Shown piece after piece: positions 25,269 through 25,823 of a stretch of 35,162 bases of DNA (the first letter of the stretch is position 1; each line of letters opens with the position of its first letter). This DNA is from a virus (lineage: Duplodnaviria; Heunggongvirae; Uroviricota; Caudoviricetes), in IMG/VR virus record IMGVR_UViG_2859810971_000008, positions 1 to 35,162 of that record; one strand, written 5' to 3'. Below the pieces are notes generated by a model, which saw only the letters and a program-made list of their open reading frames with translations, had not been told where the DNA came from and searched no databases. The position numbers were made by a program, and so were the translations under genes.

Positions 25269-25823
25269 TTAGCCCATCATTTTTCTATACGCCTCTGCAG
25301 CCTGCTCCGGCGTTAAGTTGGTAATTTCTGTTCTGACTGGTCCTCCGTCAGCACCAGTCACTTCATTTTTGACATTGTCTTTAAACGCCTGAACAGAAAC
25401 ATGACGCCCGAGCAACTCAAGGTTTTTAACCTTATCAGGCCATTTGATTTTCTTCAGGAGAGCAGCACTATCTGCTGATGCCATCTCGACGACATCCATT
25501 CCTGATAGCGTTGTACGCCACACCTTAGGCCAGTCTTTAATCGGCTTCAGTTCGCCATTGGCAAGCAGAATGTCAAGCACGTCCATCTGATCGATTTCAG
25601 TCAGCCGTCACAATACATAGGCAGCGTCTATACCTACCTCTTCATTGCGTTCAGCCTTTAGCTCAGCAATGCGATCTGCTATGTCAGGTTTTGACAGGTT
25701 CTCGCTACCAGTGGCGCGAGCAGTTTTCTCGCTGTAACCCGCCCTGATAGCTGCCTGAGTGGCGTTTAAATCTTTCAGGTACTCACGGGCAAACAGCTCT
25801 TGTTTGTCGGTGAGCTTTGCCAT
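25269..25823 (-). pseudogene. Terminase small subunit, interrupted by an in-frame TGA at 25608-25610
   Basis: N-terminal fragment MAKLTDKQELFAREYLKDLNATQAAIRAGYSEKTARATGSENL (HTH typical of small terminases) and the 105-aa downstream ORF are in the same frame, 7 codons apart, separated only by TGA (…AAYVL*RLTEIDQMDVLDIL…). Confidence 0.75.

Follow-up and report, generated by a model that had tools for sequence, protein, structure and literature searches.

Whether the in-frame TGA that divides the small-terminase gene (TerS) of this prophage is put to some use, as a leaky or recoded stop or as the boundary between two working pieces, or whether it is simply a mark of decay, is the question that this locus raises. 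We addressed it within the window (the whole 35,162-nucleotide stretch of DNA that was analyzed) and by comparison with homologous genes, prophages, and assemblies. The preliminary description had reported two small-terminase open reading frame (ORF) pieces in one frame, split by TGA and then C, and conceptual translation and the local bases confirm both this arrangement and its coordinates (Table 1).

Table 1. Positions in the window of the small-terminase gene, its internal stop, and the other genes, remnants, insertion sequences, and point lesions considered in the text
Feature	Position	Strand	Description and basis
TerS (Terminase_2) pseudogene	25269..25823	-	184 codons, one internal stop; translation, PF03592, and S163-2 alignment
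Premature TGA, codon 72, from CGA (Arg)	25608..25610	-	Followed by C (25607), which begins a conserved CGG
N-terminal fragment ORF, 71 aa plus stop	25608..25823	-	Helix-turn-helix DNA-binding domain only; ORF list and structure alignment
C-terminal fragment ORF, 105 aa	25269..25586	-	From internal ATG 7 codons past the stop; oligomerization core and C-terminal part
TerL, intact 540-aa ORF	23644..25266	-	Directly downstream of TerS; ORF list
Q late antiterminator remnant	28724..28949	-	Last ~75 of 173 codons; CUS-3 match from nt 294 of the 519-nt Q
IS911 (IS3 family)	28948..30199, approximate	-	NCBIfam transpos_IS3; 98.6-99.1% identity to annotated IS911
Truncated replication protein O	30196..30834	-	N-terminal domain only; TIGR01610 phage_O_Nterm, residues 21-113
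N antiterminator remnant, 31 of 108 residues	32783..32875	+	tblastn with S163-2 N
IS600 (IS3 family)	32864..34140, approximate	-	Replaces all of the early-left operon and N past residue 31
1-bp contraction, C5 to C4 (gene strand)	21944	-	Frameshifts minor head (Mu F-like) gene
1-bp contraction, G5 to G4 (gene strand)	21510	-	Frameshifts DUF2213 head gene at ~codon 10
1-bp contraction, G5 to G4 (gene strand)	7682	-	Frameshifts baseplate J at ~codon 371

The two pieces belong to one interrupted gene

Read from 25823 to 25269, the locus translates as MAKLT...GIDAAYVL*RLTEIDQMDVLDIL...KMMG*, with a single internal stop, and the bases around that stop are ...TAT GTA TTG TGA CGG CTG ACT GAA ATC GAT CAG ATG...; both ORF pieces share one frame. 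When the conceptual protein was given a sense residue at codon 72 and matched against Pfam, Terminase_2 (PF03592) was found to span the stop, from residue 4 to residue 155 (E = 1.6e-39; 136.2 bits versus a cut-off of 26.1), and we therefore regard the locus as one interrupted gene rather than as two chance ORFs. The end of TerS (25269) is followed closely by the start of TerL (25266), an order identical to that in Escherichia coli S163-2, whose TerL is matched over its full length at 98.7% identity.

In this regard, the gene shares several properties with that of the Terminase_2 protein G1P of Bacillus phage SF6 (3ZQP/3ZQQ), namely, the family signature, an N-terminal helix-turn-helix, and a terL gene directly downstream. 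Unlike in SF6, however, the TerS frame is broken at codon 72, and the primary product would be the DNA-binding domain only. A working member of the family has an uninterrupted frame that joins the oligomerization and C-terminal domains in a single chain, and the TGA at codon 72 breaks that frame; the locus is thus a Terminase_2 pseudogene and not a functional member of the family.

What is removed can be judged from the structures. In a phmmer comparison, TerS matched SF6 G1P (3ZQP) over residues 3-78 (E = 4.4e-14) and again, less strongly, in the C-terminal part, while the chains that consist of the DNA-binding domain only, 2CMP (63 aa) and 4ZC3 (68 aa), aligned to TerS residues 3-61. It follows that the 71-aa product amounts to little more than the helix-turn-helix domain. 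Presumably, the stop falls at the start of that part of the chain which, in SF6 G1P, forms the oligomeric ring. We infer that TerS function is lost, the fragment having neither the oligomerization core nor the C-terminal part.

One alternative is that the gene has been split into two parts that still work. Reinitiation at nearby starts after nonsense codons is documented in E. coli, an in-frame ATG lies 7 codons past the stop, and both pieces are annotated by gene callers; ribosomes stopping at the UGA might therefore restart at the ATG 21 nt on (25586), and the 71-aa and 105-aa pieces might together keep some function. However, the sequence leading into this ATG (CGGCTGACTGAAATCGATCAG-ATG) contains no GGAG, GAGG, or AGGA, so that reinitiation would be inefficient at best, and not one of the best 120 of 7,803 homologues is split at codon 72. 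Moreover, the DNA-binding domain would be untethered, no longer borne on the TerS ring, and the state of the prophage (described below) makes any residual function moot. We consider a working split gene to be highly unlikely.

The ancestral codon was CGA

The nearest intact homologue is found in E. coli S163-2, which also ranked first when 5,426 complete E. coli genomes were compared (99.4% over 701 bases). Its gene, for which the annotation gives an uninterrupted terminase small subunit of 184 aa, is identical to that of the window at 554 of 555 bases, the sole difference being CGA (Arg) in place of TGA, and the codon that follows the site is CGG in both. The window itself is absent from the complete E. 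coli RefSeq genomes, in which the best match for the TerS gene is at 99.4%.

A search of the protein collection with TerS returned 7,803 homologues at E <= 1e-10, of which the best 120 were examined. Each of these is a single protein of 169 to 241 aa. At position 72, which sits inside the near-invariant block A-Y-V-L-[R]-R-L-x-E-I-D-Q-M-D, the best 120 carry Arg (105 proteins), Asn (9), or Lys (6) and never Trp, Cys, or a stop; Arg73, encoded here by the CGG that follows the TGA, is present in 119 of them. With full-length homologues that have Arg, Asn, or Lys at this site, the protein has no natural end at codon 72, nor is the downstream ORF a conserved gene in its own right. The preliminary description had named precisely that arrangement, homologues terminating at this point with a separate gene beyond, as one that would overturn its reading, and the best 120 homologues speak against it.

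Two further statements in that description bear on the origin of the codon. It took the lesion to be a substitution, and the S163-2 gene, which has the same length and a C at the base in question, agrees. It also expected the ancestral codon to be either TGG (Trp) or CGA (Arg); the second of these is what S163-2 has, whereas Trp is absent at this position from the best 120 homologues. As judged from the alignment, the ancestral codon is CGA, and a single C-to-T transition created the TGA. Since the gene otherwise agrees throughout with the intact S163-2 copy, its downstream half included, the mutation is recent.

The T allele is real and narrowly distributed

The whole window occurs, base for base, in chromosome CP026810.1 (GCA_002949455.1; 4.53 Mb), which carries the T. 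If this were a sequencing or assembly error, the true base would be C. The same chromosome does contain suspicious 1-bp contractions in homopolymers (Table 1), two of which recur in CP026872.1, where the local sequence differs by ~1%. However, the TerS lesion is a substitution that lies outside any homopolymer, and the Logan assembly of run ERR200328, which was assembled separately, has the same T within 3706 bp identical to the window. An error at this base is thus extremely unlikely; the independent assembly indicates that the T does not arise from sequencing, and the sense codon in the reads that the preliminary description had envisaged as a counterargument did not appear in that assembly. 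For both the 71-aa product and TerL, identical sequences are recorded only in CP026810.1 and ERR200328. The T allele is therefore real and confined to a narrow lineage, and it may be tagged by the 31-mer GCCTATGTATTGTGACGGCTGACTGAAATCG.

An apparent third carrier, contig k141_76325 of ENA assembly ERZ27289371 (L006), was rejected. This contig ends ...TATGTATTGC, with the wild-type C, and its 71-aa "gene" (positions 329-542), identical to the truncated product, is an artifact of the contig end. The contig stops exactly at the polymorphic base, and searches for the exact protein are easily misled by it. A sample containing both T and C variants might account for a break at this base, or the position might be coincidental.

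The remaining point lesions in the late genes are less secure. Two of the three 1-bp contractions recur in CP026872.1 (L013 and L028), an accession from a neighboring range that has further 1-bp losses of G. The frameshifted 394-aa baseplate J product is recorded only from CP026810.1, and the repaired baseplate J sequence had no match among the proteins compared. In the short-read relative SRR8137335 (L027), which has an identical portal protein, the runs are 5 bases long, the DUF2213 gene is intact (406 aa), and so is TerS (183 aa). It is possible that the two recurring contractions reflect shared descent, and also possible that the frameshifts reflect a systematic error in long-read consensus sequences. 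Among the point lesions of the late operon, independent data confirm the TGA alone, and it could be the sole real one there. This doubt over homopolymers leaves our conclusion unaffected, since that conclusion rests on the IS-associated deletions described below.

A further apparent change of frame is seen in the tail-fiber gene (minus strand, ~6394-6408), where two overlapping ORFs, 6358-6933 and 5918-6418, both match Gly_rich_2. The change occurs at runs of G (GGCGGGGGATGTCCGGGGAG), and the relatives diverge before that point.

TerS genes in other lineages carry lesions of their own. In two related loci, L008 (2765-3318) and L010 (1-466), a 1-bp deletion lies near gene position 187-191, and codon 72 has the wild-type C. 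A 76-aa C-terminal TerS remnant (P0138; source name "terminase [Shigella flexneri]") is present on 118 contigs. The TerS gene of CP026872.1 (L028 6487-7058) is a different mosaic allele, which has Met at the equivalent site and goes out of frame near the 3' end; on these grounds, CP026872.1 was rejected as a means of ordering the TGA relative to the IS events. Independent TerS lesions of this kind fit relaxed selection on the packaging genes of resident prophages.

A functional leaky or recoded stop is not supported

The most attractive functional reading, and the one put forward in the preliminary description, is that tRNA-Trp reads the UGA-C often enough for packaging to be reduced rather than abolished. 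Poole, Brown, and Tate (EMBO J 1995) reportedly ranked UGAC as the weakest termination context. Passages in PMC9841425 and PMC5829715 cite this claim of Poole et al. 1995. UGA is the most error-prone stop of E. coli, and it is read almost always as Trp at a rate that depends on context (PMC11126739); the base that follows the stop affects termination (PMC5373646). On whether UGA-C is the weakest context in E. coli, as the preliminary description stated, published findings diverge: the 2024 E. coli reporter library placed leakiness with G at +4 and tightness with T (PMC11126739). The same library showed that T-rich upstream sequence lowers readthrough; the bases upstream of the TerS stop are UAUUG. 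Rates also depend on the release factor: for the native UGA genes NudL and PheL, readthrough products were seen with the weak RF2 of K-12 and were undetectable with the RF2 of E. coli B (PMC5373646).

The preservation of TerL and of most late genes as intact ORFs also speaks for a functional leaky stop. Against this, the C at +4 opens the conserved CGG codon and is older than the mutation. Being inherited, it gives no indication that the context was selected, and the weak UGA-C appears to be accidental. Moreover, the residue that readthrough would insert, Trp, never occurs at position 72 in the best 120 homologues, within a block that is otherwise near-invariant. We found no stimulatory structure, as the fold of the 76 nt surrounding and following the stop scores like that of shuffled sequences (z = -0.06), and an Rfam search of the region after the stop, SECIS included, gave no match at E <= 1. 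Finally, with Q, N, O, and P truncated or absent, the late operon would not be activated, and there would be no replicating genome to package. Taken together, the inherited C, the foreign Trp, the absence of structure, and the dead prophage leave a meaningful rescue of full-length TerS by a leaky stop without support, and we regard a functional leaky stop as improbable.

Programmed recoding, whether as selenocysteine or as conserved readthrough, fares worse still. What speaks for it is the presence of an in-frame UGA and nothing more. In the nearest homologue the codon is CGA; the others have Arg, Asn, or Lys and never Cys or a stop, and there is neither a SECIS or other Rfam match nor a stable hairpin. 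As for selenocysteine, no SECIS hairpin was detected, and neither Cys nor selenocysteine occupies position 72 in any of the best 120 homologues. As for programmed readthrough, the stop is conserved in 0 of those 120, and the 3' context is no more than the ancestral coding sequence. These sequence comparisons effectively refute programmed recoding of the UGA.

What may be expected at this codon is spontaneous readthrough by tRNA-Trp of the kind known from E. coli, that is, at a low rate dependent on context and RF2 allele (PMC11126739 and PMC5373646). Unlike the codons in true readthrough systems, the TerS stop is not conserved and has no stimulatory element, a functional product is unsupported, and Trp is foreign to the site.

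The prophage is cryptic

We mapped all proteins of the S163-2 prophage onto the window by tblastn and aligned the DNA. The window covers the entire prophage, an intS-type integrase (1..1158) forming one boundary and torI the other, and the match to S163-2 ends at 35162. Its late structural module is well kept, mostly at 95-99% protein identity to that of S163-2. The regulatory and replication genes have fared differently (Table 1). The Q remnant, upstream of the holin gene, adjoins IS911, and the truncated O lies on the other side of that element, so that neither P nor the nin region can be accommodated. The early-left operon (~5.6 kb in S163-2) is missing from the window. The genes for induction, replication, and late activation have thus been lost, as is characteristic of cryptic lambdoid prophages, and IS911 and IS600 lie at the junctions.

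The losses of Q, N, O, and P are structural lesions and not base-calling problems. From the damage to these four genes, it is predicted that the late operon is not antiterminated and that the prophage does not replicate. Without late activation or replication, a trace of full-length TerS would have no bearing on packaging. The choice offered by the preliminary description, according to which either readthrough supplies the protein or packaging is inactivated, accordingly becomes moot.

The S163-2 prophage that served for comparison is itself defective, its Q gene being interrupted by IS1A (L011 22505-23905). Relative to S163-2, the window has an extra segment of ~420 bp (34473-34895) just before torI, the flanking matches stopping at 34472 and beginning again at 34896. 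The S163-2 coordinates overlap around that segment (37638-37661), which suggests a small duplication or insertion.

In its general layout, the element resembles other cryptic lambdoid prophages of E. coli and Shigella: intS and torI bound it, insertion sequences stand in place of regulatory and replication genes, and point lesions are scattered through the late genes. The same intS...torI site in K-12 is occupied by KplE1/CPS-53. Unlike in the K-12 KplE1 element, far more of the late module survives here, and the morphogenesis genes belong to the DUF1073/DUF2213/DUF3383 type.

Two Acyl_transf_3 genes (Oac-like membrane acyltransferases), at 1515-2690 and 4456-5481 (both on the plus strand), lie beside the intS integrase. 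The two minus-strand ORFs between them (2727-3629 and 3698-4063) had no family match. It is possible that the acyltransferase genes are O-antigen-modifying cargo for lysogenic conversion, which could explain why the remnant has been retained.

Discussion

In our view, the TGA in TerS is a recent, probably neutral CGA-to-TGA nonsense mutation in a cryptic prophage disabled by IS911- and IS600-associated deletions, and we assign this reading a probability of roughly 0.87. The neutrality of the mutation is judged from its context and is likewise only probable. A C-to-T transition turned codon 72 from CGA (Arg) into TGA; translation would then halt at that codon and release the 71-aa DNA-binding-domain fragment, which would be unable to form the TerS ring or to work with TerL, with the loss of TerS function as the outcome. 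Low-level readthrough of the UGA (giving Trp72) or restart at the downstream ATG may occur, as at any UGA. Since the late operon is predicted not to be antiterminated and the prophage not to replicate, neither event would have an evident consequence. The TerS lesion is a case of ordinary gene decay and not a regulated leaky stop, and as an event it is of an ordinary kind.

One further possibility is that the allele has been co-opted. The otherwise good preservation of the late module makes it conceivable that the 71-aa domain, or a trace of the Trp72 protein, binds the pac site of incoming related phages and either interferes with their packaging or hijacks it. If this were true, the remnant would act as a terminase-decoy defense or as a helper-dependent transducing element. 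We think the odds of such a role are very small indeed.

Returning to the nonsense mutation as a product of decay, the TGA is of some practical use. As a lesion of a long-read assembly that is backed by short-read data, it stands beside homopolymer frameshifts that are doubtful, and the TGA allele could mark the lineage of the strain group represented by CP026810.1 and ERR200328. Otherwise, the finding is of little importance except for accurate annotation, in which the locus should be entered as one terS pseudogene with an internal stop (CGA to TGA), and not as two small ORFs or a candidate for recoding.
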